Below are positions 6,591 through 35,200 of a stretch of DNA of 64,000 bases, one piece after another (the stretch's first letter is position 1; each line of letters begins with the position of its first letter). The stretch is from an uncultured Bacilli bacterium (GTDB taxonomy: Bacteria; Bacillota_I; Bacilli_A; RFN20; CAG-288). The notes below the pieces were generated by a model. It made no database searches. It was not told the DNA's origin and was given only the letters and a program-made list of their open reading frames with translations. The stretch lies in NCBI GenBank assembly GCA_944371605.1, contig CALVXU010000015.1:9686-73685 (forward strand). The letters run 5' to 3'. The position numbers and the translations under genes are program-made.

Positions 6591-8015
6591 TTAATCAGTA
6601 GTTGTCTTCAAATATTCAACATCGGAACCAGTGATTTGGCCAGCATCAACAGCAGCGACAACTGCAGTTCTAGCATCATCGTTATAGAAGAAAAGCATTT
6701 CACCACTAGCATCTTCCTTTGATGGTTTATTACCTTCAAAAACAACATTTTCAAAACTCAAAGGATAGTCAGTGCTAAATCTAGCTAAACCAGCACTTGT
6801 GCCTTGATTATAAGTATTGTTTAAAACACTTAAGTTTTTGATATTACCAGTGATAGTCAAGCCGAATACATCCCAATAAGAATTTGTGAACGTATTGTTT
6901 TGGATAATAACATCGCTTAAGACTCCAACATTACCATGAATATTTATCGGTCTTTGGATAGTAGAATTTTGAATGACGACAGGGCCATTGGCAGTTCCAC
7001 CATTGATCCAAATAGAATGAGCCATGCTACTGCTGCTACCAGTAAATGTACAATTGTCAACGATTAATCCATTGGTATTAGATTCAGTAGTGATGGCATA
7101 TTTTTTATTGTTCCCTTGGCCGACAAAATTTATGCCAGAGATAGTCAAACTGCTTCCGGAAGTCATATAGAATCCATTTTCAGCTCCGACTTCAACTGTC
7201 GCACCATTACCAATGATAGTGACATCTTTTTCAATTCTAACTTCGTGAGTCAATTCAGCATCAGGCGATAAAGTTAAAACATCACCATCTTCTAAACTAG
7301 CAAGAGCTTCAGTTAATTCTTCATCACTAGCGATTAAAGATTCATCAGTGACTGGAGGGAATTCACCCTTCTTTTGCTTAGCAGCAACATTCATATCGAT
7401 TTGAATAGCTTCACCAAAATAATTGCTATCTAACTTTTCACCAGGTAAGTGAAGAGCGATAGCAAAGAAAATACGGTCTCCAGCACTTATTTCATAAGAG
7501 CCATTTTGGAAAACATGTCCAAAAGGTAAAGTGAAAGCCTCAGTGGAACCATTCCAACTTAAAAAGCTGTCCCAAGAATACTTAGTATAATTGCCATCTG
7601 CAGTGAGATCATAAGCATAATCCATGTTGATGGAAGATTCTAAGATATCACTCAAATGATATTCATCACCATCATCATTAGGCTCAGTGATGTTAAAATC
7701 TAAACGGAAATCTAAATCGATAGTTCCAGTATTGACTAATGATAAATAGGCGACTTGATATTCATCACCTTGCCAATTGGTTCCCTCAAAAAGATGAACA
7801 CCATCAGTGGAGCCATCAGCATTTTCGGCAGGGACATATTTATCTTGTTCAGAATCATACTTTTCTAATTCGATGCCAAAAGTACCAGCTTGAATGATGT
7901 TACCGTTATTAGAAGCTGAATCAGAAAACCAAGCATAAGAAGTGCCGATTAAAGCACCAGCGCTTAAAACAATAGAAGCAGCACAAGCAATAAGACTAAA
8001 TTTTTTACCTTTCAT
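6591..8015 (-). CDS. Secreted TasA/camelysin-like protein with C-terminal beta-helix repeats (paralog of 4374-5852)
   Basis: MKGKKFSLIACAASIVLSAGALIGTSYAWFSDSASN...GTFGIELEKYD. The C-terminal repeats are VTIIGNGATVEV, LTISGINFVG, LIVDNCTFTG, VIIQNNTFTN. It is collinear with the 4374-5852 product, including the C-terminal G.I(S/T)GSDVE. Confidence 0.75.
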   Translation of the reverse strand: MKGKKFSLIACAASIVLSAGALIGTSYAWFSDSASNNGNIIQAGTFGIELEKYDSEQDKYVPAENADGSTDGVHLFEGTNWQGDEYQVAYLSLVNTGTIDLDFRLDFNITEPNDDGDEYHLSDILESSINMDYAYDLTADGNYTKYSWDSFLSWNGSTEAFTLPFGHVFQNGSYEISAGDRIFFAIALHLPGEKLDSNYFGEAIQIDMNVAAKQKKGEFPPVTDESLIASDEELTEALASLEDGDVLTLSPDAELTHEVRIEKDVTIIGNGATVEVGAENGFYMTSGSSLTISGINFVGQGNNKKYAITTESNTNGLIVDNCTFTGSSSSMAHSIWINGGTANGPVVIQNSTIQRPINIHGNVGVLSDVIIQNNTFTNSYWDVFGLTITGNIKNLSVLNNTYNQGTSAGLARFSTDYPLSFENVVFEGNKPSKEDASGEMLFFYNDDARTAVVAAVDAGQITGSDVEYLKTTTD

Positions 8016-9965: not shown

Positions 9966-11489
9966 TCATTTCGTTTTTGATATGACTTCATTGATTTTTT
10001 TAATCAGTAATTGAACCGCAGGTGTCGAAGATAAGTTTTTATTTGGCAAAGCCCCTAAATAATAACCCAGGTGTCCATCTAATGGTAAAAGTTTATCATC
10101 TGGATATATGATGTAAAGCGAATCTACCGCATTTCTGATCAATTTGTCATTTTTAGTTTTAAAAGCGAATTGCACATAATCATCGATCATATCATCTAGA
10201 TAGCTTATTTTCTTATCATCGATCACCATCGGTAAAACATTCTTGCTGCTTCGATATTTCATCTCTAGAACAAAGGCGTTGATAAACTGATCATTTTCGA
10301 ATAATTCGATTGTGAAGTCTGGCCTATTCTTTCGACTATTGATGGTCACTAACTCATCATTGACATCTTCGCGATAATTTTTGATTATTGCATCATAATT
10401 AACAACAGCTTTGTAAGTTCCCATCAAATAGATAAGCGGCTTCATGCCAGGATGAAAATCCTCTAATCTTATATCAGCACTTCCTTCCATTTGAAAACCA
10501 CATTCTGACAAGACAGCATTGATGATGACAAGACCATATAGTTCATATAGAACAGAGGTTCTTTTTCTTTGATACACTTTAACTGCTTCTTTATTTAATA
10601 AAGCCTTATTAAAATTGTTGACTAAATGATAATCAGTATTATAAGCATATGAATAATTCATTCTCGTTTCTTTAACATTATTAAAAAATGGTTTGTTTCT
10701 AAATTCACATAATCTATCCAATAATTTTCTCATTATAATAAGACACTCAGTATATTCATTTTGCATATATGAATCATTGATATATTCGATAGCATTCTTC
10801 ATAGAAATGATGATATTCCTCAAAGAGTGTTTTAAACGTCTGTTATAACCAGTATCATAAGATAAAACCTTTTTAACTGAATAATATCCTTTGCGACTAG
10901 AGAATCGATTGTTTAAACGCTCAGTCTTATAATCTTGAACAGCTTTGCTTTGTGAGAGATAGTATTTCTTGCAGATGATTTTATCTGGATTTCGTTCTAT
11001 ACGAGATATCGCCTTTTGAATCTTCAAATCATATTCATTCAATATTCTTTTCAATCTGAGCAAATAATCATTTTCAACCCGTGAAAAATTGATTGTCAAA
11101 TGCTTTTGAAATCGTTCTAAAGCGCTGACTAATTCCACTAGATTTTGTTCGTCTTTTATGTTGGTAACAACTGAAAAACTAGAGACTTTGTCTAACGTAG
11201 AAGTCTTTAATTCATATGTTCCCGGCAGATAATAAAGATTGGGATATTGTGATGAAGAAATCAAAAATTTATCACCTGGTTTTAATAACAGAAAACTATC
11301 TTTAGTTTGCTTAACTTCTTTATCAAAGAAAGTTTCTGCTTCTAATAGCAAGTCTTCATCCCCAGTATTAGAGACATAGACTTCTTCGGTATCAGCAAAG
11401 AGGTCATCTTGTTGAAATGGTAAAAGAAATGTTCGCTCAGATAGTACTCTATTCGGAAAAGAAAATGTGATTTTAGCGCAAGAAGCCAT
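9966..11489 (-). CDS. McrC-like PD-(D/E)xK nuclease subunit (DUF2357/DUF524-like)
   Basis: The C-terminal region has RPDFTIELFEN...AFVLEMKYRS, a D...E.K nuclease motif. There is a 17-nt overlap with the upstream McrB-like ATPase gene. The pairing and gene order match McrBC-type systems. Confidence 0.6.
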   Translation of the reverse strand: MASCAKITFSFPNRVLSERTFLLPFQQDDLFADTEEVYVSNTGDEDLLLEAETFFDKEVKQTKDSFLLLKPGDKFLISSSQYPNLYYLPGTYELKTSTLDKVSSFSVVTNIKDEQNLVELVSALERFQKHLTINFSRVENDYLLRLKRILNEYDLKIQKAISRIERNPDKIICKKYYLSQSKAVQDYKTERLNNRFSSRKGYYSVKKVLSYDTGYNRRLKHSLRNIIISMKNAIEYINDSYMQNEYTECLIIMRKLLDRLCEFRNKPFFNNVKETRMNYSYAYNTDYHLVNNFNKALLNKEAVKVYQRKRTSVLYELYGLVIINAVLSECGFQMEGSADIRLEDFHPGMKPLIYLMGTYKAVVNYDAIIKNYREDVNDELVTINSRKNRPDFTIELFENDQFINAFVLEMKYRSSKNVLPMVIDDKKISYLDDMIDDYVQFAFKTKNDKLIRNAVDSLYIIYPDDKLLPLDGHLGYYLGALPNKNLSSTPAVQLLIKKINEVISKTK

Positions 11490-15038: not shown

Positions 15039-15398
15039 TTATTGATCAAGTTTGACGACGACTGTTTCTTTCTTAGTATGTAATACATTATAAAGAATTG
15101 GGACAACAAAAAGAGTGCAGAAAGAAACGACAAGTTTAAATAAGACTAAACTAGCTGGTTTGAACATGTGCCATTTCTTTGTTCTAGTCTTTTTTTGTAA
15201 TGTGGCCTCATTTTCGGTTTTAGATTTAACTTTATAACCATTTCTTTCGTAAACATCAATAACACTTTCAAATTCTGCTAAGCTTTTTGTGACTTTAGTT
15301 GAACTAGACATATCATTATCCTCCGATATAAAAATTTTACTTGCATCCCCCCCCCAATTAAAGTCAATACTATTATTAAAAAACATCGAGTCACTCAT
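15039..15398 (-). CDS. Hypothetical protein with C-terminal TM helix; contains a G8 tract
   Basis: 119-aa ORF with a C-terminal hydrophobic segment ASLVLFKLVVSFCTLFVVPILY. Codons 14-17 (N-W-G-G-D) are encoded by aat-tgg-ggg-ggg-gat. I recognised no family. Confidence 0.45.
   Translation of the reverse strand: MSDSMFFNNSIDFNWGGDASKIFISEDNDMSSSTKVTKSLAEFESVIDVYERNGYKVKSKTENEATLQKKTRTKKWHMFKPASLVLFKLVVSFCTLFVVPILYNVLHTKKETVVVKLDQ
15347..15354 (-). repeat. G8 (C8 on the plus strand) homopolymer inside a coding sequence
   Basis: Direct reading gives ttgcatCCCCCCCCaatt at 15347-15354. Confidence 0.9.
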
Positions 15399-15704: not shown

Positions 15705-17528
15705 TCAATTTTTAATTGAGATATAACTGATATTACCATTTGTATGTGTGACTTTATAATAGAACTGAGCTAAATTAGTCCTAGTGAGAAATTCGATATT
15801 TTTAACTGAAGTATCTAAATTTAAGCCACGATTTCTGCTAAAAGAATAGCCGGTATAAAGAATTGTCCCTGTTGTATCCAATAGCAATGAGCACTGGTTG
15901 AAAGCATCCATAAACTTTCTGCTAAAGCGAGCATTTTCAAATTTTTCATTTGTGCTACTCACTTTTGATGTGACTTTGATTTCATCACTACTGGTCTCGA
16001 CTGCAGCTAGTAAATTATCTTTCGAATTATAAGTATCAAAGCGAGTGACACCAACATATCTTGTAGATAAGTCACCTATGATGTCATCAGAAGATTCATT
16101 GACATAATGATAATAACCAATTTTATCCTTATAAACAAAATTTTGTTCTGAATAAGTTTCGATTGAAGCAAAGCCATTACTCAATGGTTTACTTTCTAAA
16201 ATATAATCAGGTCTAGAAAAGAACGATTGTTTTTTACCATTACAATAAAATAAAAGTCCATCACCAGTCACATCATTGATTCCGATCATATTGCCTTCTC
16301 CAGCACAAGAGACCGAATAATAAGTATTCAATGAATTTGGAGATATCTCTTCAGTTTCTCCATCAGTCTCTTCTCCATCTTCAGAAGAAGAATTTAAAAA
16401 TGATTTGATATCTCCTGAACCTGTTATGGTAAAGGTATAAGAATTTTCTTCATCAACAGTTCCATCAGATTTTAATTTGAATCCAATGAATGAACTGCTA
16501 GCTAAAGATTTATGAGCCACGTGCCACCAAGTCGGTTTATGATATGAATAAGAAACATTCGCATCTAAGCTATTAAAAGTGACAGGAACATATTGTCGCA
16601 AATTAGTTTTTCCATCATCATTGAGGACAAACATCTCGCTTCTCACTATTCCTAATTTTGTATCATTACCTGTCGCTAAAACACATAGCGCTTTTTTGGT
16701 CGGAAGAACAAGGTATTGAACATTCTCACAATCTAAAAGTTTTTGTGAGAAACAATCGGTCGAAAGAATTTCATATTCCTTTTTATTGTCGTCGTCATCA
16801 TAAAAGATAGCTACGCCATTTTGATAAACAACACGATTCTGTCTATCAATATTATCCGTGTATGTCATAGATATATAATCATTAGTATATATGAAATCCA
16901 CCAAAGAAGCATCTTCATATGAAGATTTAGTCAATTCGTAATAAATAGGAAAGCCAGAATTACTATTTATGTTTGATTTTGTTTTTAGATAATAATCATC
17001 TTCTGGACCCGGATCATCATGATTGATAATCTGGGCGTTGATGGTATAACTATTAGTTATAGATATGGAAACATCAGAGAGATTTTCAAATGTAACTCCT
17101 AAATCGACACCTGTTGTTGTATAAAGAGCATAGTTATCCCCTAAGTCAATAGCTGCAAATGGCATATCATCATATATGTGAATAGGTTCATCTGAATATG
17201 GAACAGTCGTGAGATAACTTCTGCTTGTAATAGTATCGCCTAACAAGTAAATATCAACCGTATCTCCATGAGCTATATAACAAAAGCGAGAATAATTTAC
17301 ACCATCGTATTTAGGAAATTGTAAATCTTCAAAATATGAGTTGCTGACAATTGTTGGGGCACCTAAATTTGCATTTCCATTAAAGTCGAAGAAAGAGCCA
17401 TAACTATAAGAACTCTCAACTATATCAGTGTAATCTCTATCATGATAAGAATAACCTGGCGAGTCAAACAAACAAGATGTCAATAATAGTACTGATAAAG
17501 CACAAGGAATAATTGCAATTTTTTTCAT
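15705..17528 (-). CDS. Lipoprotein, last gene of the ESCRT-III/Vps4-like operon
   Basis: MKKIAIIPCALSVLLLTSCLF has a signal peptide with lipobox LLTSC. The 607-aa product is Ser/Thr/Tyr/Asp-rich and looks beta-rich and extracytoplasmic. It begins 18 nt after the preceding gene. Confidence 0.7.
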   Translation of the reverse strand: MKKIAIIPCALSVLLLTSCLFDSPGYSYHDRDYTDIVESSYSYGSFFDFNGNANLGAPTIVSNSYFEDLQFPKYDGVNYSRFCYIAHGDTVDIYLLGDTITSRSYLTTVPYSDEPIHIYDDMPFAAIDLGDNYALYTTTGVDLGVTFENLSDVSISITNSYTINAQIINHDDPGPEDDYYLKTKSNINSNSGFPIYYELTKSSYEDASLVDFIYTNDYISMTYTDNIDRQNRVVYQNGVAIFYDDDDNKKEYEILSTDCFSQKLLDCENVQYLVLPTKKALCVLATGNDTKLGIVRSEMFVLNDDGKTNLRQYVPVTFNSLDANVSYSYHKPTWWHVAHKSLASSSFIGFKLKSDGTVDEENSYTFTITGSGDIKSFLNSSSEDGEETDGETEEISPNSLNTYYSVSCAGEGNMIGINDVTGDGLLFYCNGKKQSFFSRPDYILESKPLSNGFASIETYSEQNFVYKDKIGYYHYVNESSDDIIGDLSTRYVGVTRFDTYNSKDNLLAAVETSSDEIKVTSKVSSTNEKFENARFSRKFMDAFNQCSLLLDTTGTILYTGYSFSRNRGLNLDTSVKNIEFLTRTNLAQFYYKVTHTNGNISYISIKN

Positions 17529-26520: not shown

Positions 26521-28218
26521 TTACAAAAGTTTGAGTACTGACAAAAAATCATCTAACTTAATAAAATTGACATCATGTTTGATTTTTTCTTTTAAGAAAC
26601 GACTTTCATCTTCATCTTTACAAATTAAAATATCAACATCTTTAGTTTCCAAAGCCAAAATATACCCTTGAGATTCAATTCTCTTACAAAGATCAATACA
26701 ATCTAAATCAGATTTTTGAACATCATTAGAAAAGGCGAATCTTTTACCTATAAATTTTGGATCGGATAATATTGTCTTATATTTTTCATCGCTCTTTCTT
26801 TCTCTTCTCAACTTGTCAAAAGGCTTTTCGATTACTCCTTTAAGCCTCGAAATATATTCCCTTAGTTTTCTTTCATCTGCGTTTAATTTTGTGACTTCAA
26901 TATCCCACTTGCTAGTAATTATGCATTCTAGACCAGCTTGCCTAATTAAATCCCCTAGCAACAACTTAGAATTAAAATGCTTCTCAATTAAATACTTTAA
27001 AGCAAGCATCGTAGCCATGGCATCATAAGAGGCTTCATGAAAATTGATATTTTTTGTTTCATCCTCAGGAAGATATTTTTTAACTATTGCTTCAAGTCCT
27101 CCACTCTCTTTTAATAACTGTTTAAAGAGAATATGAACATCTATAGCAAAAATATCCAATGGATTATTTCCATATCTCCTATAAGAATAATCAAGATAAT
27201 CAAAATCGTTTTTGACATCAAATCCAAAAATCAATATATCTTTTTGATTAAAAAGATAGTTAATATAATCGATATAATAATCAAACTCAGGGGCTTTTCT
27301 ATATATTTCGTAGTTATCTTTTTCGTACCTTAAATGAAGGTCTTTTTGATTTTTTCTACCAATGAGAGCAAAATTATAATTTCTCCCATTGCCAGGATTG
27401 ATTATGTATTCACCTCTCATTGGTCTCTGAAAATTTGATGTGACTATAGTCCAACCAAACTCACATATTTTACCTTCGTCGTTAAAACAGTTAGCACATT
27501 CCGTATCAAAAAAGATATATCGTTTTACATTATTCCAATTAGTATTATTAAAAATGTTCTCCTTTACTTGTTTTGACTTGAGCTTTACATATTCTTTTTT
27601 AAAGCTATTAGACGAAGTTGTATAGCACCATGATGAAAAGATATCCTTTGATAAGCATTCACTTAACGTAAATCTGTATTCATTACATATTTTTTCAAAA
27701 ACTTTAAAAGCTAATAAAGCATTAGTCTTTGAATAATGTTCTTTAATCTTAATAACATCATCATTTTTCGGAAAAAGATTATTTATTGCGTTACTTAAAG
27801 ATGGTATGACAAGTTTCTTCTTAGTAATTCTATAGAAAGTTTGTACATCAAAAGCTTTTATATTAATGTCGATTAACTCATATCTTTTACAATCAGATGA
27901 TATGTAAAATAAATCATTCTTAATATCCCAACCCATTACTTGGTTTTCAGGGTTAGTGAGCAACGACTTAATTTTTTCATAATAGTAGGGGAATTTATTT
28001 TGTTTCCTATAAAACTCATAATCATTTTCAAAGTGAGCAAGTTCAATTTTTCTTTCAACAACATCAGAAAAATCTTCATTTTCACCAGGATTGATGAAAA
28101 AATTGCCTTCTTCAATAATCTGAAAAGAATCATTAACAAGTACATAGCCAAATTGAGCAATTTTAGGTTGAATGTTATGTTTATTAGCCACTTCACAATC
28201 TATAAATAATAAATTCAT
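26521..28218 (-). CDS. Tandem DEDDh (DnaQ-like) 3'-5' exonuclease domains plus a C-terminal BRCT-like region
   Basis: Domain 1 has LLFIDCEVAN (ExoI), MGWDIKNDLFYI (ExoII) and EHYSKTNALLAF, where ExoIII has N in place of the usual D. Domain 2 has IFFDTECANC, FGFDVKNDFDYL and FHEASYDAMATMLAL, an intact H-x4-D. The tail is FIGKRFAFSNDVQKSDLDCIDLCKRIESQGYILALETKDVDILIC. Confidence 0.65.
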   Translation of the reverse strand: MNLLFIDCEVANKHNIQPKIAQFGYVLVNDSFQIIEEGNFFINPGENEDFSDVVERKIELAHFENDYEFYRKQNKFPYYYEKIKSLLTNPENQVMGWDIKNDLFYISSDCKRYELIDINIKAFDVQTFYRITKKKLVIPSLSNAINNLFPKNDDVIKIKEHYSKTNALLAFKVFEKICNEYRFTLSECLSKDIFSSWCYTTSSNSFKKEYVKLKSKQVKENIFNNTNWNNVKRYIFFDTECANCFNDEGKICEFGWTIVTSNFQRPMRGEYIINPGNGRNYNFALIGRKNQKDLHLRYEKDNYEIYRKAPEFDYYIDYINYLFNQKDILIFGFDVKNDFDYLDYSYRRYGNNPLDIFAIDVHILFKQLLKESGGLEAIVKKYLPEDETKNINFHEASYDAMATMLALKYLIEKHFNSKLLLGDLIRQAGLECIITSKWDIEVTKLNADERKLREYISRLKGVIEKPFDKLRRERKSDEKYKTILSDPKFIGKRFAFSNDVQKSDLDCIDLCKRIESQGYILALETKDVDILICKDEDESRFLKEKIKHDVNFIKLDDFLSVLKLL

Positions 28219-28221
28219 TAT

Positions 28222-28986
28222 TTAATTTCTATTTTCCTTATAATCTTTGTTCTTTTTTATAACAGCTTCTAGTAATTTAGGAGTTACACATTTTTCTTTT
28301 GCTTGCTTTACAATTGACGAAATATCTTTTGGAAGACAGCTTCCTCCATATCCTCTATTATTCTTATAGACAAAAGTATGACTTGAACCAATTCTAGGAT
28401 CTGCAATCCAAATTTCTCTAGCTTTGTTATATGAAACTCCTAGTTTTTGACAAATATCATACATCTCATTGCAAAAAATCACTTTAGTTGCTAAATATGC
28501 ATTTTCCATGTACTTAGCCATTTCGACAGTATCACTATCTCCTTGATATATTTTTACATTTGAATTAATAACACTTTGGTAAACTTCAATAGCCATATCA
28601 ATTGCATCTTGTTCGCCACCAAAAGATAGCCAAGAACGATCAGATAAATTGGCAAAAGGATGCGCAACAGTTTCACCATAATATTCAGGTTGAAAAACTA
28701 TCTTCTTATGGTATTTATTGACCATCTCTTTTGTAAAACCAACTTTAACAGTTGAACGTAAAATAAGCACTGGACATGAGCACATAGAAATTACTTCTTC
28801 AACTGCTGAAGTATCACAACTCCCATCCTCATTCATAGGCGTAGGAACACAAATAAAAGCAGCATCGCATTTATTAATTTCTTCCATACTTCCTATGTTT
28901 TTGAATTTATCATATAACACTGCTTCTTTAAAAAGATTACTCATTGCAGTTCCAACATGTCCCACTCCAACAATTCCAACTTTCAT
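28222..28986 (-). CDS. UDP-glucose/GDP-mannose dehydrogenase-family protein lacking the C-terminal UDP-binding domain
   Basis: MKVGIVGVGHVGTAM (Rossmann GxGxxG), FICVPTP and the catalytic Cys box GYGGSCLPKD. At only about 254 aa it is short. The start ATG at 28986 overlaps the TAA of the upstream giant gene in TAATG; the track start at 29001 contains the GGAGG. Confidence 0.7.
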   Translation of the reverse strand: MKVGIVGVGHVGTAMSNLFKEAVLYDKFKNIGSMEEINKCDAAFICVPTPMNEDGSCDTSAVEEVISMCSCPVLILRSTVKVGFTKEMVNKYHKKIVFQPEYYGETVAHPFANLSDRSWLSFGGEQDAIDMAIEVYQSVINSNVKIYQGDSDTVEMAKYMENAYLATKVIFCNEMYDICQKLGVSYNKAREIWIADPRIGSSHTFVYKNNRGYGGSCLPKDISSIVKQAKEKCVTPKLLEAVIKKNKDYKENRN

Positions 28987-31900
28987 TATTTTTTCCTCCA
29001 TTTAATTCCATGATATTTTTTTGTATACAAGTTAAGATATTTAGATAATAAATTGATAACTTCATCCACATTATTAGCTGAGTAAATACAATCTTCTAGT
29101 ATGGCTGGATATCTAATTCTGTCATCTAGTTTTCGACCTGCTAGTTTCTTTCCATATCCATCAACATTATTAAATGCAATTATCAATTTATACTTTTGCC
29201 AAGCCATAGCCATTTCAGATAAAGTGCCAGCACCACCACCAATAACAACTACAGCATTTGCATCAACTACTAGACCATTTCGTAATAAATCAAGCCCAGT
29301 TGGCACGACAACATCAGCGAAATTATTCGCTTCTTCAGTATTAGTTGATGGAATAATAGCTATCGTTGAACCTTTTCTATATTTTGGAGATGATCTAGCT
29401 CCTTTAAAGACTGCTTCCATTACTCCACCTAAGCCGCCAGTTTGAATGTTATATCCTAGTTCTGCCAATTTTTTACCTAGTTCAAAAGCGGTTTTGTATT
29501 TTGTTGAATTATCTAAAACTGATCCGTCTCCTATTACAGCAACAGTTGGATATTGGCTTAATATTTCAGCTCTACTTAATAACCATTTTTGCATTTTTTG
29601 TTGAAAATTATCTTTATAAATGCCTAGTTTATTTTTACTTTCATCAGGCAAATCAAATAGATAAATTTGTTCTTTTATAAAAGCTGGTGAATAAGCGTGT
29701 TCAATTATTGGAAGCATCATTGCATAATCAGTTCTAATATCTATATATTGGCTGTCTTTCATTAAATTATCTTGAATAAATTCACATAGATAGCGCCTAA
29801 AACATTTAGGACGGAGCCATATATTATCTCCATTCCTTTCCCAACTATTTTTAAATGAAACTAAATCATATTTTTTTAATGGCTTATCTAGTCTAAAGCA
29901 GTTACCAATAGTAACATCATTACCACTATCAAATTTTTCTTTAATAATACTCAAAGCATCGTTTCTAATGAGAGCATCATCACTATCAATGTTGATAATT
30001 ATACTTTTTGGATTAATGCAAATATGCTTATAAAAGAATTCAAAGTTTGCCAAAGAGCCAACTCTGGTCTCGTTTTTAATATAAATAATTTTATCTTTCC
30101 AAATAGGTGAATAAGTTGCTAGCATTCTAATATATTCACTTGATGAAATATTAGTTGAATTATCATCTATATATACAATTTGAAAATTACTAAAACTTTG
30201 CATTTCTAAAGAATCAAATAATCTTTTTAGTTTAATTGTTGGTGTATTTCTTCCCCTAATGAAAACAACTACTTCTTTTGTTGTTTGAGGTATCCATTGA
30301 TAAGACTCGCATAAGTTAACATTATCTAATTGAATTAATGGAACAAACCTATTTTCAACTTGTCTTCTAACTATACTTATAAAATTCTTAACTTTCTTAG
30401 TTTCATTTTCTGGATGTATGAAAAATAAATGATTTGAAATTAGTCTTAGTGATTCCACTTTATTTAAAGATTTATCTAAAGCACGATTCCAACTATCTTT
30501 TAGAACACCATCTATAAGTTCATTATCTAATGGTAACTTTGTGCTTAACCTCTTTAAATCAATAAATGACGATCTAACTTCAGTTCTATTTGAAAGTATA
30601 GGGCTTCCATTTCTGTTATGAGCTATGCTTAAGGATAAAGTTAAAGCATTATTCTTTTTCAGAATATTTAAAGCCTCAGATAGACTTTCCTTACCATCAT
30701 TAAAATAAATTATGTCAGAATCTGTTTGGAAAGCGTATCTTGTTTTGCAAGATTCAAAACCATTTAAGATTGCTAATAGATTTTGTCCGTTTACACTATG
30801 TGCATCAATTGATTTTAATGAAAAATACTTTTTATAAAGTAAATAATCTTTAGGCAAATCTAATGATACAACTCTATCAATATAGCCATCATCTTTAAGA
30901 CGGCTAATTTCAGCTTTAAACTTTTCTATATTATCTTCATCATATCTACGTACTCTTTTCACATTTTCAATATCAATAGTCAAAATTCTTTCGGCAAATA
31001 CATCTTTTCTTTCTAATTGGGAAACAATATGCTTAACATTATCATAAATAGTATTAGCTTCCATTGAATTAGCTTTAACTATTAAAGTGCAATCAGTTAA
31101 AATATTTTTATTAGATTTATAACAATCAAAAATCAAATGTTCTCCGATAAAAGAGAGCGAAGATGTGTCTATTCCCTTATCTTCATATACCGCTTCAATA
31201 TTAAAGCCATATTTATTTAATAATCTTTCATAATAAGCTAGCGGTCGATGATATTCCTCTCTTTTTCCATAAATAGTAACTTTTTTATACAAAGAGCTTT
31301 TTTCATATTTACCATCATAATTTTTAATTGAAGTTACAGTATGATTTACATTATCAAAAAAAGGATTACAAATACTTAAAATAAATCTCCCATCATTTAA
31401 AACTAATTGATTAATTTTACTTAAAATAAAGTCATTGGTTTTATTATCAGTACAGCAAAGCACTTTATTGCAATTTACAAAATCAAAAATACGCTCTACA
31501 TTATTAATATCATCAATAACAGTAACTTTATTAGACGCTCTTTCATTTATTGTTTTTTTATCTATATCAAAAACATATGTGTTAAATTTATCAGCGATGG
31601 CATTAGCTATTCTACATTTTCCTGCACCATAATCTAAAACGCTGCTAGGATGATGACTATTTATTAAACTTAAAATGATTGGGTCATGAGTCTGTTCTTT
31701 TCTTTTATCATTTATTAAATCGTAAAATACATCTAGAGCATAATTAAATGCTTTATTTTCTTCTTGATAACTTTTAGAAATTAGAATTCTAAATTGATGT
31801 TTGTTGAGATTTGAAAACTTAATCATTTGATAGCAACGCTCAACACTCTTTTTATAATCTTTTTCGCTATAAGATACGATATCTCTTCCTAAATCTACAT

Positions 31901-34409
31901 AGATAAACTCATTATTAGATATTAATATATTTTCTTTTTTAAAGTTGTTTATCACTAATCCATGAAGCCTAAGTTCATTTAAAAAATGAGCTAATTCTTT
32001 AGCATATCCACCTTCATATTTTTTAAAATTAATAATCGTGTCATAAGAACAATACGCATAATCTAGTGCATCATTGAACCTTATATTCTTAGGAAGCTCA
32101 GTGATATCATTTAGTTTGCTAATTATTGATTTGAAAAAGTTCAAATTATCTTTTTTAAAAAACACTTTATATGTTCTATTAGTGGAACTATAAACGGCTC
32201 CTTCTAATCCATACCCAAGTAAAATAGGATTATCACAGCCACATTTATTACTAAGAAAGTTTTGTATCTTTTCTAATTCGTCTTTTTTCTCATCTAAAGC
32301 GATATATGATCTCAATTCCTCAAAACCAGTATTAACAAATGAAATATCACTTAGTTCTTTTATTTTTCTTATAAAATTATAAACAAGTTCATCATTTTCT
32401 AAGTGCTTAAAACCTTCTTCATTTAGTATTTCTAGTAAGCCAATAACTCTAAAGTAACTAATAGCAAATTTAATTGTTCTATTCTTTATTGATTTAATAA
32501 ATTCAGAATAAAAATTCGTTCTTGATAAAAAATCCTCTTTTGTAATAGCTGATATCATTGAATAACCTAAAATATCTAGGGCTTCTTTTTTAATTTCTTT
32601 ATCTAAATCAAAGTCATAAGTAAATCTATTTTGAAACAAACTAAAAGTTGAGCCTATTATTTTATATCCTTTTTTCTTAGCTAAAATTATCCAAAGACTA
32701 TCTCCACGTCTTGAAATACAATCATTAATCTTTATTGAAAAATTAGGAACAAGAAGTAAATTTCTATTTAAGAAAAGTGTATTTCCACCCCTTCTAATAG
32801 GTTTAAAATCGCTAATGGGACATTCAAATAACGGTCTACTAACTGCTTTGCCACCTAAAACATCTTTTAAAGAACAATTTTCAATTAATGGAAATGGAGT
32901 TTCGTTACATGTATTTCCTTCATTTGAAAATGAATAATAATAGTCTTTTTTGTAGTAAAGTTGTTCTTGCGATAGTTTGTTTTTACCAAGCTTTTTTGAA
33001 TAAACATAATCTAATAAAGTGTTTCTTATAGTAGATAAAGCAGGTATTGGTGCATCTCCTGAATAGCTTCCAACAACTGCATCAGCCTTATTAAAATAAC
33101 TAGAAACAAATCCTTTTATATCAGCTTTCTTAATCTTAAATTTACCATTTTCTCTATAAATAGAAGATAATTGCATATCTTCATCTAAAACATAAACAAT
33201 GTCGCCATTTTGAGTATTTTTATATGCAAAATATTGAAGAATACTTCTAGCAACAGATATCTCATTTACCATTCCTTTTTTAGGAAAATTATCAGAAACG
33301 AATTTATCAAAATAATTAGTTTCTACAAGCTTTTTTGCTTTTTTTAATGATAATATAGAAAATTCAATGCCTGTTTCACTTAAAATATTGTTTATTTCAT
33401 CTAAGTCAGAACCTCTTTCAAAATTAGCAAAGACAATTATCTTTTTACTTGGATAATCTGCTTCACAAATATCATTAATTAGTCTTTTTGCATAATTAAT
33501 ATCCGTTGTAATAAATGAAAAACATAATCTTGGAAAATAATCTAAATATGTATATTTAATATTACTATCTAATTCATTAAAACTTGTGTTTTTTTCTAAC
33601 AAATTTAAAAGCTCTGCTTCATTTGTTATACCTGACAAAAGTTTAACTCTGTTGAAAAATGCTCTCTTAACATCATCAATCATAAGAGAACCGTATTTAT
33701 AATAAAATTTAGCCAAAGATATCTTTTTGCTTTCTTTATTATTTGTTAACCTTTCTCTTGAGTTTGATGCATCAATTTCAACTAAATATTTATCTACTAC
33801 GCTTATGTTTGGGTTAAGCATTAATAGTCTAGTAAATAAATCACGATCAGTAGTTGAATCCATATTCTCATCAAAGCATCCAGCTTTCAGCAATATCGAA
33901 AATTTAACAAAAGTGTTAGAACCTTGAATATGTGGATTACCTTTTAGAAAAGAATAAATGCTCAATTCATGAGGGATAGTAAGCTGAAAACATTTCTCAT
34001 CAGTATGATAGTTTAAGCCACATACAACAATATCAGTTTTGTTAGTCTTTGAATTCCAACATTCTCTTAAATAGTCTTTATGCCAAATATCATCATCATC
34101 TAAAAATGCAATAAATAGATTATTTAGATTATATTGATTATCAAAAGCATATTTAGCAAAAACTTCTTCTATAGCCGAATTTAAATTACCAGCATAATTA
34201 TGAGAGTATTTATCTTTTAAAAAATGAAAACCAAATTTAGAGCAAAGAGTTCTTTCAATACTTTCATTCTCATTAGAAGAATCACTAGCGACAAAAACAT
34301 CTAATGGTTTTTTTGTTTGTAATGATATAGATTCTAATGCATTGTTTAAAAGCTCGACTCTGTTCTTAGTAGCAACAACAACAATAATCCCTTCTTTTTC
34401 GGTTAGCAT
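28986..34409 (-). CDS. 1807-aa multidomain protein: GT-A glycosyltransferases, kinase-like domain, class I methyltransferase, C-terminal LOG/TIGR00725-like domain
   Basis: The N-terminal GT2 has IIVVVATKNRVELLNNALESISLQT...FLDDDDIW. A second GT-A-like region has IVYVLDEDMQ. The kinase-like block is at about nt 31800-32260 (LLGYGLEGAVYSS, YKVFFKK, HGLVINNFKKENILI, YVDLGRD). The SAM methyltransferase motif I is VLDYGAGKCRIA (about nt 31613-31640). A further GT2 has VVVFIRGRN...IVYIDDNS...NIDSDDAL (about nt 29700-30275). The LOG-like domain has VAVIGDGS...TGGLGGVMEA...VVIGGGAGTLSEMAMAW (about nt 28989-29560). Confidence 0.7.
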   Translation of the reverse strand: MLTEKEGIIVVVATKNRVELLNNALESISLQTKKPLDVFVASDSSNENESIERTLCSKFGFHFLKDKYSHNYAGNLNSAIEEVFAKYAFDNQYNLNNLFIAFLDDDDIWHKDYLRECWNSKTNKTDIVVCGLNYHTDEKCFQLTIPHELSIYSFLKGNPHIQGSNTFVKFSILLKAGCFDENMDSTTDRDLFTRLLMLNPNISVVDKYLVEIDASNSRERLTNNKESKKISLAKFYYKYGSLMIDDVKRAFFNRVKLLSGITNEAELLNLLEKNTSFNELDSNIKYTYLDYFPRLCFSFITTDINYAKRLINDICEADYPSKKIIVFANFERGSDLDEINNILSETGIEFSILSLKKAKKLVETNYFDKFVSDNFPKKGMVNEISVARSILQYFAYKNTQNGDIVYVLDEDMQLSSIYRENGKFKIKKADIKGFVSSYFNKADAVVGSYSGDAPIPALSTIRNTLLDYVYSKKLGKNKLSQEQLYYKKDYYYSFSNEGNTCNETPFPLIENCSLKDVLGGKAVSRPLFECPISDFKPIRRGGNTLFLNRNLLLVPNFSIKINDCISRRGDSLWIILAKKKGYKIIGSTFSLFQNRFTYDFDLDKEIKKEALDILGYSMISAITKEDFLSRTNFYSEFIKSIKNRTIKFAISYFRVIGLLEILNEEGFKHLENDELVYNFIRKIKELSDISFVNTGFEELRSYIALDEKKDELEKIQNFLSNKCGCDNPILLGYGLEGAVYSSTNRTYKVFFKKDNLNFFKSIISKLNDITELPKNIRFNDALDYAYCSYDTIINFKKYEGGYAKELAHFLNELRLHGLVINNFKKENILISNNEFIYVDLGRDIVSYSEKDYKKSVERCYQMIKFSNLNKHQFRILISKSYQEENKAFNYALDVFYDLINDKRKEQTHDPIILSLINSHHPSSVLDYGAGKCRIANAIADKFNTYVFDIDKKTINERASNKVTVIDDINNVERIFDFVNCNKVLCCTDNKTNDFILSKINQLVLNDGRFILSICNPFFDNVNHTVTSIKNYDGKYEKSSLYKKVTIYGKREEYHRPLAYYERLLNKYGFNIEAVYEDKGIDTSSLSFIGEHLIFDCYKSNKNILTDCTLIVKANSMEANTIYDNVKHIVSQLERKDVFAERILTIDIENVKRVRRYDEDNIEKFKAEISRLKDDGYIDRVVSLDLPKDYLLYKKYFSLKSIDAHSVNGQNLLAILNGFESCKTRYAFQTDSDIIYFNDGKESLSEALNILKKNNALTLSLSIAHNRNGSPILSNRTEVRSSFIDLKRLSTKLPLDNELIDGVLKDSWNRALDKSLNKVESLRLISNHLFFIHPENETKKVKNFISIVRRQVENRFVPLIQLDNVNLCESYQWIPQTTKEVVVFIRGRNTPTIKLKRLFDSLEMQSFSNFQIVYIDDNSTNISSSEYIRMLATYSPIWKDKIIYIKNETRVGSLANFEFFYKHICINPKSIIINIDSDDALIRNDALSIIKEKFDSGNDVTIGNCFRLDKPLKKYDLVSFKNSWERNGDNIWLRPKCFRRYLCEFIQDNLMKDSQYIDIRTDYAMMLPIIEHAYSPAFIKEQIYLFDLPDESKNKLGIYKDNFQQKMQKWLLSRAEILSQYPTVAVIGDGSVLDNSTKYKTAFELGKKLAELGYNIQTGGLGGVMEAVFKGARSSPKYRKGSTIAIIPSTNTEEANNFADVVVPTGLDLLRNGLVVDANAVVVIGGGAGTLSEMAMAWQKYKLIIAFNNVDGYGKKLAGRKLDDRIRYPAILEDCIYSANNVDEVINLLSKYLNLYTKKYHGIKWRKK

Positions 34410-34563
34410 AATAAAACCTCTAGCTTGATAAGTGTAGAATAATAATGTACTTATTCACCTCTACTTAAAAATAGAGCAAAATAACACGCCGTTTTGCCCT
34501 AAATAAAAATCATAATTTTGTCCTAATCATTATCACAAAGTAACAAAATTCCACCTACTAAGC

Positions 34564-34716
34564 TTACAAAACTTTAAAACCAACACTAAGAGTTTTCTCA
34601 CCTTTATAAGCTTTATACACGCTTACTGTCATCGGAATACACCAACATAATGGAATAAGTAACCATCCCATTCCAATAGTACATAACAAGCATAAAATAA
34701 ATGCTGCTAATTTCAT
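34564..34716 (-). CDS. 50-aa small membrane protein (unannotated, below the track threshold)
   Basis: ATG at 34716 lies 7 nt after GGGAGAG. It translates to MKLAAFILCLLCTIGMGWLLIPLCWCIPMTVSVYKAYKGEKTLSVGFKVL. It sits directly downstream of the G8-containing promoter and upstream of the giant gene on the same strand. Confidence 0.5.
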   Translation of the reverse strand: MKLAAFILCLLCTIGMGWLLIPLCWCIPMTVSVYKAYKGEKTLSVGFKVL

Positions 34717-34751
34717 TGTTTCAACTCTCCCTATAAATAAAATTCGTTTTT

Positions 34752-34778
34752 ATTTTACCCCCCCCTAGGAAAAGTCAA
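34752..34778 (-). promoter_or_regulatory. Sigma-70-type promoter with a G8 homopolymer in the spacer
   Basis: The minus strand reads TTGACT (34778-34773), tttcctaGGGGGGGG as a 15-nt spacer, then TAAAAT (34757-34752). The ATG at 34716 lies 35 nt downstream of the -10. Confidence 0.5.
34758..34765 (-). repeat. G8 (C8 on the plus strand) homopolymer in an intergenic promoter spacer
   Basis: Direct reading gives attttaCCCCCCCCtagga at 34758-34765. Confidence 0.9.
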
Positions 34779-35083
34779 GAGTTTTCGATGATCATAGCAC
34801 TATTTCGTCATCATCTTATAGTCAAGTTTATATCTAGTAAACGTTGCATAGCCAATAATAGTAGCTGCTATATCGTTTATTCTTTTTAAGCTATAATTCT
34901 GTTTTGATAGTTGAATACTAATAAATATTCTAATAATAAAAGCAATAAAAAATTCGTATTTATTAGAGACGTTCAAAAACACTTATATCATTTAAATAAC
35001 ATCAATAATTAGATAAGTCTACTCTTTCATCTTTAGGCAGATACAAGACGTAATCTTACAAAGTGCCAATTTATCATATAAAT

Positions 35084-35114
35084 AAAAAGTCTGAGCACTA
35101 TTTGAGTGTCAGAC
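35084..35114 (-). terminator. Rho-independent terminator after rpoC and tRNA-Gly
   Basis: The minus strand reads GTCTGACAC-tcaaata-GTGCTCAGAC (9 bp with one bulge) followed by TTTTTATTTAT. Confidence 0.6.
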
Positions 35115-35129
35115 ATGTTTTTGTAAACA

Positions 35130-35200
35130 AGCAGCCAACGGGAATCGAACCCGCATATACAGCTTGGGAAGCTATCGTTCTACCACTGAACTATGGCTGC
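35130..35200 (-). tRNA. tRNA-Gly (CCC anticodon)
   Basis: The reverse complement GCAGCCATAGTTCAGTGGTAGAACGATAGCTTCCCAAGCTGTATATGCGGGTTCGATTCCCGTTGGCTGCT folds as a cloverleaf. Acceptor is GCAGCCA/TGGCTGC, D stem GTTC/GAAC, anticodon stem ATAGC/GCTGT, loop TTCCCAA, T stem GCGGG/CCCGT with loop TTCGATT. The discriminator U is typical of bacterial Gly. No CCA is encoded. Confidence 0.8.

Follow-up and report, generated by a model that had tools for sequence, protein, structure and literature searches.

Does a run of eight guanines between the −35 and −10 hexamers of a promoter act as a phase-variation switch in an uncultured gut Bacilli whose genome has a GC content of about 34%, and if it does, which genes depend on it? 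The preliminary description of this locus proposed a candidate switch for a small membrane protein and possibly for a whole glycosyltransferase island behind it. The explanation that we lean towards, if by a modest measure, is a different one: a sigma-A-type promoter with a poly-G spacer, predicted to be in a low or OFF state, that would belong to a small, decaying unit and would not govern the giant gene of the island. Here, the window is the whole 64-kb stretch of DNA that was analyzed, and all coordinates of the promoter in question (site 1) are given on its minus strand. The features needed to follow the argument are listed below.

34901-34800, minus strand: terL remnant (last 33 codons), directly upstream of the promoter
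34778-34773, minus strand: −35 hexamer TTGACT, read from the sequence and preceded by ctc
34772-34758, minus strand: spacer of 15 nt, tttcctaGGGGGGGG, read from the sequence
34757-34752, minus strand: −10 hexamer TAAAAT, read from the sequence
Immediately 5' of the Shine-Dalgarno sequence, minus strand: conserved leader AATTTTAYTWAT, from the alignment with orthologues
34731-34725, minus strand: Shine-Dalgarno (SD) sequence GGGAGAG, 8 nt ahead of the ATG at 34716
34523-34716, minus strand: small membrane-protein gene, with a present open reading frame (34716-34564) of 50 aa
34501-34472, minus strand: terminator-like hairpin with a 10-bp stem (UAGGGCAAAA/UUUUGCUCUA), followed by U5 at 34471-34467
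34409-28986, minus strand: giant gene of 1807 aa, with a GT2 domain, a methyltransferase-like region, and a C-terminal SLOG cluster-4 (LDcluster4) domain

The two hexamers and the 15-nt spacer with its G8 are present on the minus strand just as they had been described. The spacer consists of tttccta followed by GGGGGGGG, with the G8 (34765-34758) abutting the −10 hexamer, and the site thus reads TTGACT-N7-G8-TAAAAT, i.e., with a homopolymer of at least about 7 nt between −35 and −10. The distance from the −10 hexamer to the ATG is 35 nt, and 20 nt separate the −10 from GGGAGAG; this SD sequence and the ATG had been pointed out as well, with a gap of 7 nt between them that in fact measures 8 nt. 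A simple promoter scan does not return the site because it takes spacers of 16-18 nt only. Manual inspection for an alternative −35 hexamer that would give a spacing of 16-17 nt yielded candidates matching at most two of the six positions. The view that 15 nt is sub-optimal agrees with the other promoters in the window: the four clear housekeeping promoters (rplK, tRNA-Met, rpsP, and the one upstream of the open reading frame ending at 2494) all have spacers of 17 nt in a TTGACA/TTGCAA-17-TATAAT-like arrangement, from which we take this canonical spacing to be the one used by the organism. The G run would then be a slippage-prone simple-sequence repeat, in which gain or loss of a G would alter the spacing of the hexamers. 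G10 would give the 17 nt of the housekeeping promoters and G9 would give 16 nt, and the 15 nt of G8 are predicted to make the promoter weak or OFF.

Long runs of G or C are very rare in this DNA. The 64 kb contain 43 runs of four and 3 of five, none of six or seven, and one each of eight and nine. The two runs of at least 8 nt compare with 0.035 expected (analytic expectation under a first-order Markov model), an excess of about 60-fold over chance; together with the absence of runs of 6-7 nt, this confirms that G8 is conspicuous in such AT-rich DNA. A second long run had been noted, and it indeed exists as the sole other one, but it comprises 9 nt (15347-15355) rather than 8 nt. In both cases the G's are on the minus strand, where nearly all genes of the window are encoded. 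Across 1.84 Mb of DNA from the clade, promoter-like matches with a G-rich spacer were found in three settings only, namely at the 68-aa gene family discussed below, at a twin site around the second run, and in Ca. Enterosoma merdigallinarum (L008), and each of them precedes an SD sequence and a start codon. The contig L019 contains a G8 (11328-11335) in the loop of a terminator-like hairpin between rpoC and tRNA-Gly, a context unlike that of the promoter tracts.

The closest genomes were assembled from gut metagenomes and belong to uncultured Bacilli of the RF39 / Ca. Enterosoma type; to our knowledge, these Bacilli are known from metagenomes only. The closest species representative (L003) matches at 92% nucleotide identity across 11.3 kb. 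An exact look-up of rplL recovered strains of the same species (98-99% identity), and the DUF2188 gene also worked as an anchor; exact-protein look-ups of rpoC, the 119-aa open reading frame at the twin site (site 2), and the 259-aa UDP-glucose dehydrogenase fragment returned nothing. A scan of JGI metagenomes for site 1 with a variable-length gap gave 0 matches, and a relaxed 20-mer scan gave just two unrelated, GC-rich chance matches.

Among the strains, the tract at site 1 comes in two lengths. G8 with identical flanks is found in the window, L001, L002, and L128; the window, L001, and L002 stem from one study, are 100% identical, and hence are not independent tests, whereas L128 has an identity of 98.4% to the window. 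L133, with an identity of 98.2%, carries G6 and thus a spacer of 13 nt, and the two G's are the sole gaps in 787 aligned nt, although an allele observed once (G6 here, and G11 at the twin site) could include homopolymer consensus errors. The strain comparison that the preliminary description had suggested thus finds that the tract is not invariant, as G8 and G6 occur within the species. None of the five assemblies has an allele with a 16-18-nt spacer at site 1, the spacers being either 13 or 15 nt.

The second long run of the window occupies a very similar position (twin site, 15334-15367), and it varies among strains as well.

15367-15362, minus strand: −35 hexamer TTGACT, read from the sequence and followed by ttaatt
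15355-15347, minus strand: G9 tract, followed by atgcaag
15339-15334, minus strand: −10 hexamer TAAAAT, read from the sequence
15311-15039, minus strand: 90-aa membrane-protein gene, preceded by GGAGG-N8-ATG (15311)
Allele G8-caag (L117, L125): spacer of 18 nt
Allele G9-caag (L118, L119, L122, L126): spacer of 19 nt
Allele G9-atgcaag (window): spacer of 22 nt, with an extra ATG beside the tract
Allele G11-atgcaag (L115): spacer of 24 nt, differing from the window by 4 SNPs in 1.6 kb

The strains carrying G8, G9, and G11 are about 99% identical, and all indel columns in alignments of up to 3.2 kb lie in or adjoin the twin tract. Such G runs are the most indel-prone positions of the aligned regions. 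The alleles of the twin tract track the strain haplotypes, and what is demonstrated is tract polymorphism between strains, as opposed to rapid, reversible switching. Another reading of the G9, as a tract causing frameshifts within a 119-aa open reading frame, was rejected given the strong SD sequence and ATG downstream of the tract; moreover, the ATG at 15398 has no SD sequence, and gene callers mostly call the 90-aa version. Three independent metagenome contigs (L116, L123, and L124) end 13-50 nt from the twin tract (window positions 15334, 15307, and 15297), which could mean that tracts of several lengths coexist in the sample or that the run was poorly sequenced. Two assemblies (L120 and L121) lack both the site-2 gene and its poly-G promoter: identity stops at the stop codon of the gene (window 15041), a gene for an Fe-dependent repressor and an ABC transporter lie beyond the break, and one of these assemblies shares its sample with L002.

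The third example, in L008 (10654-11127), reads TTGATT-N10-G9-TAAAAT-N6-GGAGG-N9-ATG and precedes a gene for a double zinc-ribbon membrane protein. It is located directly after rpoC-tRNA-Gly and is followed by a gene for a 302-aa protein and a convergent DUF2188 gene; via this neighboring DUF2188 gene it is syntenic with the twin site of the window. In this clade, long G runs are thus concentrated in the promoter spacers of small membrane-protein genes.

Conservation beyond the species shows what the promoter of site 1 may once have served. The small gene belongs to a family of 53 homologues, nearly all of 68 aa, with two hydrophobic helices and a mean column identity of 74%. In the alignment of the orthologous promoters, the −35 hexamer TTGA(C/T)(T/A) is invariant and the −10 hexamer TA(A/G)AA(T/C) is conserved; the leader, GGAGGAG, and the ATG are kept upstream in most contexts of the family. 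The L092 group, situated after rplM-rpsI, retains a −35-like hexamer and the SD sequence without the −10 and the leader. The spacer between the hexamers varies freely among orthologues, and the pattern as a whole is the phylogenetic footprint of a promoter. The orthologous spacers found are as follows.

17 nt: ttggtcggaGGGGGtGG
16 nt: ttggtcGGGttGGtGG and T7GGGcgcttt
18 nt: tcgtcGGGGcGGGGaGGG
12 nt: one group (L103-L108)

They thus span 12-18 nt, mostly 16-18 nt, and are G-rich but interrupted. Their length differences are confined to the G-rich part, and an uninterrupted run exists in the lineage of the window only. Such a spread agrees with a tract that repeatedly grew and shrank and was later interrupted by substitutions, and we infer an old G tract of this kind that would have been "locked" by substitutions in most lineages. 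Measured against 17±1 nt, site 1 has 13 or 15 nt, the twin site 18, 19, 22, or 24 nt, and the interrupted orthologues 16-18 nt. Intact genes are also present behind short spacers (13 nt in L133, 12 nt in L103-L108), so the −35 hexamer may matter less than assumed, or those genes may be silent. Taken together, it seems quite probable to us that the promoter is real and that its tract is intrinsically mutable.

The gene behind the promoter has fared less well. What had been described as a 50-aa membrane open reading frame is a truncated allele of the conserved 68-aa gene, with 50 of the 68 aa left in the strain of the window. Ancestrally, the frame extended as far as the TAG at 34525-34523, and a deletion of 13 nt at 34571/34570 now interrupts it; the 13 nt in question (ttgcacattgctt) are missing from the window alone in comparison with all orthologues. 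Owing to the shift in frame the second helix is lost, and the old C-terminus (...FVSLVGGILLLCDND*) can still be read out of frame to 34523. In L128, 146 nt of the open reading frame are deleted (window 34671-34526), and the small gene is thus broken in both strains that have the giant gene (window and L128). As the 13- and 15-nt alleles are short and the G8 alleles precede a broken gene, this copy may be regarded as decaying and as parked in a low or OFF state rather than as a live switch: in the species lineage of the window, the switch would be parked at the short end (G8, and G6 in L133). Such a contingency-type promoter would no longer usefully switch the small gene, given its parked state and the decay of the gene. 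We consider it rather doubtful that site 1 currently works as an adaptive switch.

In its complete form, the small unit would comprise the promoter, the leader, the SD sequence, the gene for the 68-aa two-helix membrane protein, and a hairpin terminator. The hairpin behind the gene (34501-34467 with its U-run) is modest, with −9.1 kcal/mol and a z-score of −1.5; it is retained in the window and L128, and a terminator-like hairpin occurs at the same relative position behind the orthologue in L102. It had escaped a scan of the window because of its 10-nt loop. Homology of the window to the orthologous units is limited to 34521-34811, extending to 34917 in L102, where the matching region (7151-7945) is a longer terL pseudogene with internal stops (phrog_9, E 3.6e-34). 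Members of the family are found in five or more genomic contexts that are unrelated to one another, mostly among ordinary chromosomal genes: after rplM-rpsI, between a P-type ATPase gene and nrdD, beside prophage-like genes, beside an IS-like gene, and after a terminase pseudogene. The short span of homology, the hairpin, and the varied contexts together point to a portable promoter-gene-terminator unit beside a phage remnant. A split LRR_5 gene beside an orthologue (L092 vs L094/L095) was examined as a possible repeat effect and dismissed, the difference being a single G in a GG dinucleotide.

Phage morons are self-contained promoter-gene-terminator units in prophages. The unit of site 1 resembles them in having its own promoter and putative terminator, in the terL remnant that adjoins it in two genomes, and in the tRNA gene beside it. 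It differs in its mostly chromosomal neighbors and in the absence of the family from the viral collections searched: the 68-aa family has no Pfam or PHROG match, and queries with a single sequence and with an alignment found no relatives in IMG/VR (2.9 million viral contigs). Because of this absence, we do not call the 68-aa gene a phage gene.

To judge whether the promoter could govern more than the small gene, its surroundings need to be considered. The genes upstream are all on the minus strand and are followed by a region that differs from strain to strain.

Minus strand: rplK-rplA-rplJ-rplL
42963-39178, minus strand: rpoB
39162-35239, minus strand: rpoC
35200-35130, minus strand: tRNA-Gly(CCC), with a hairpin and U-run after it (about 35114-35080)
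L127 and L129: diverge at 35084, with a gene of 478/488 aa instead
L130: a 210-aa gene instead
L136: jumps from 35070 to 27684, a plain deletion, without promoter and giant gene
L133: diverges at 34752 and rejoins at 28220, with a gene for a SHOCT protein instead
L128: giant-gene cassette, as in the window

The hairpin after the tRNA gene looks like the end of the rpoB-rpoC-tRNA unit, and Rfam finds only the tRNA in the intergenic region. The match to L003 (and L131) ends at 35130, the 3' end of the tRNA gene. The hypervariable region corresponds to 27684-35084 of the window, with breakpoints that differ among strains. Since different DNA follows the terminator in different strains, the "25-31% GC island" is best described as a strain-variable replacement region. 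Hallmarks of an integrative island at a tRNA gene were not seen: no integrase domain was found in the cassette's open reading frames, and a search for att-like direct repeats returned none. At about 17185-17240, L133 has identical upstream DNA and the promoter (G6), after which a different leader starts directly behind TAAAAT; the gene that follows has its own SD sequence and encodes an intact 227-aa SHOCT-domain membrane protein, and the giant gene is absent. This fusion suggests that cassettes have been exchanged and that one of the breakpoints lies at the promoter.

Control of the glycosyltransferase island by the site 1 promoter, as envisaged in the preliminary description, is consequently not supported. 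In an operon one would look for conserved linkage and the lack of a terminator; here, a hairpin with U5 precedes the giant gene, in relatives the small-gene unit is never linked to the giant gene, and in L133 the promoter is fused to another gene. The giant gene, whose ATG is about 55-58 nt from the U-run, is thus probably outside the transcription unit of this promoter, with termination expected at the hairpin. As the hairpin is modest, read-through into the giant gene may occur, and a promoter scan of the intervening stretch gave no strong candidate from which the giant gene might be transcribed separately. Nonetheless, we regard control of the giant gene by site 1 as improbable. The short contigs L001 and L002, identical to the window, end at 34434 and 34426, some 20 nt before the giant gene's ATG, which hints that the assembly graph branches at strain level between the small unit and the gene behind it.

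Three other explanations have to be weighed against a poly-G spacer promoter of a decaying unit. The most far-reaching one is an active, reversible ON/OFF switch, with a transcript that covers the small open reading frame and reads through into the giant gene and the AT-rich cassette. It can build on the same real promoter and mutable tract, on a hairpin that is weak, and on the lack of a convincing promoter between this hairpin and the giant gene's ATG; moreover, the window and L128 keep the promoter while the small open reading frame in between has been deleted differently in each. Yet both of these strains have also retained the hairpin and its U5, the orthologous units are monocistronic with terminators of their own, none of the relatives links the giant gene to the unit, the promoter of L133 stands without a giant gene behind it, and the spacers observed (13 and 15 nt) lie outside the ON range in every case. 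We therefore consider such a switch quite unlikely. At the other extreme, there would be no switch at all and site 1 would be the fixed, weak or dead promoter of a pseudogene, whose G-rich spacer drifted to a pure run in a phage-derived fragment, with G6 and G8 differing by a neutral indel. The truncation of the gene in the window and its larger deletion in L128 would be expected under such drift, as would the adjoining terminase remnant, the short spacers of all site 1 alleles, and tract alleles that follow haplotypes.

Drift fits less well with runs of at least 8 nt being overrepresented about 60-fold while those of 6-7 nt are absent, or with the way in which both runs of the window and the run of L008 alike lie in TTGAYT...TAAAAT promoters before small membrane-protein genes. 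It also has to accommodate three tract lengths at the twin site in strains that are about 99% identical and have no other indels, as well as an intact, different gene behind the promoter in L133; we find it an unlikely account. Finally, the runs could be artifacts, either two-color Illumina poly-G or a miscalled homopolymer length. Homopolymers are indeed error-prone, and the contigs of L116, L123, and L124 stop 13-50 nt from the twin tract. However, the tracts are internal with unique flanks on both sides, they recur in independent assemblies from different studies, and the same lengths are seen repeatedly (G8 four times at site 1; G9 five times and G8 twice at the twin site), which makes this a practically negligible concern.

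Phase variation by a homopolymer in a promoter spacer is textbook knowledge for Neisseria, Treponema, Haemophilus, and Mycoplasma. In the vlp promoters of Mycoplasma hyorhinis and the Vmm promoter of M. mycoides, poly-A or TA repeats in the spacer set the spacing of the hexamers. These two systems share with site 1 the spacer repeat, the small membrane-associated proteins, and a related lineage (Mollicutes there, Bacilli here). They differ in that their repeats are A or TA instead of G, and in that they encode lipoproteins with repetitive coding regions rather than short, non-repetitive helices.

Closer in the type of repeat is porA of Neisseria meningitidis, where expression from a promoter with a poly-G spacer peaks at 17 nt and ceases as the spacer becomes shorter (summarized in PMC7864442). 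As at site 1, a homopolymeric G lies inside the spacer and a membrane or surface protein is encoded downstream; the host there is a proteobacterium and here an uncultured low-GC Bacilli (RF39-like), with short alleles only (13 and 15 nt) and a truncated downstream gene. Similarly, tp0126 of Treponema pallidum, encoding an OmpW homologue, has a poly-G between −35 and −10 that varies within and between isolates, with optimal transcription at a spacer of 17 nt (PMC7864442). T. pallidum is, however, GC-rich with many poly-G tracts, whereas such tracts are extremely rare in the present DNA of about 34% GC. Other tracts alter the amount of transcript from different positions: a poly-C overlapping the −35 in opc of N. 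meningitidis (PMC3960869), and a poly-G next to the −10 or the transcription start in tprL and tprE,G,J of T. pallidum (PMC7864442). The G run of tprL resembles that of site 1 in abutting the −10, but in opc, tprL, and tprE,G,J the spacing of the hexamers is unchanged, while the tract of site 1 is strictly between them. By analogy, site 1 is best read as a promoter of the porA/tp0126 type, in which a G homopolymer in the spacer would set the hexamer spacing. A full-text literature search found no description of phase variation in RF39/Enterosoma-like gut Bacilli, and this would thus be a known mechanism in a new lineage.

A broader reading, which we put forward tentatively, is that poly-G spacer promoters may form a maintained contingency system in the RF39-like (Ca. 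Enterosoma-related) clade, recurring before different small membrane-protein genes, surviving genus-level divergence, and acting as a fixed "expression site" with exchanged cassettes. The shared architecture is TTGAYT - N6-10 - G8-11 - (0-7 nt) - TAAAAT - SD - ATG; in favor of this reading, site 2 and the L008 site both lie beside DUF2188, and the sequences of the window and L133 part immediately behind the −10. If correct, it would provide the first evidence for phase variation mediated by repeats in this never-cultured lineage, obtained from metagenomes alone. The useful result in any case is the pattern, i.e., rare long G runs that sit in spacers before small membrane-protein genes and differ between near-identical strains. 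For annotators, this means that the expression of such genes may differ among the cells of one strain. Site 1 itself should not be taken for a master switch of the glycosyltransferase cassette.

The cassette itself has two further peculiarities. The combination of GT2, methyltransferase, and SLOG cluster 4 in the giant gene is an unusual fusion, which is intact in L128 (1808 aa). Its 3' end is overlapped by 16 nt by a 259-aa UDP-glucose/GDP-mannose dehydrogenase fragment (28222-29001, minus strand), which has a partial NAD-binding domain and the central domain without the C-terminal one and is probably a truncated gene.
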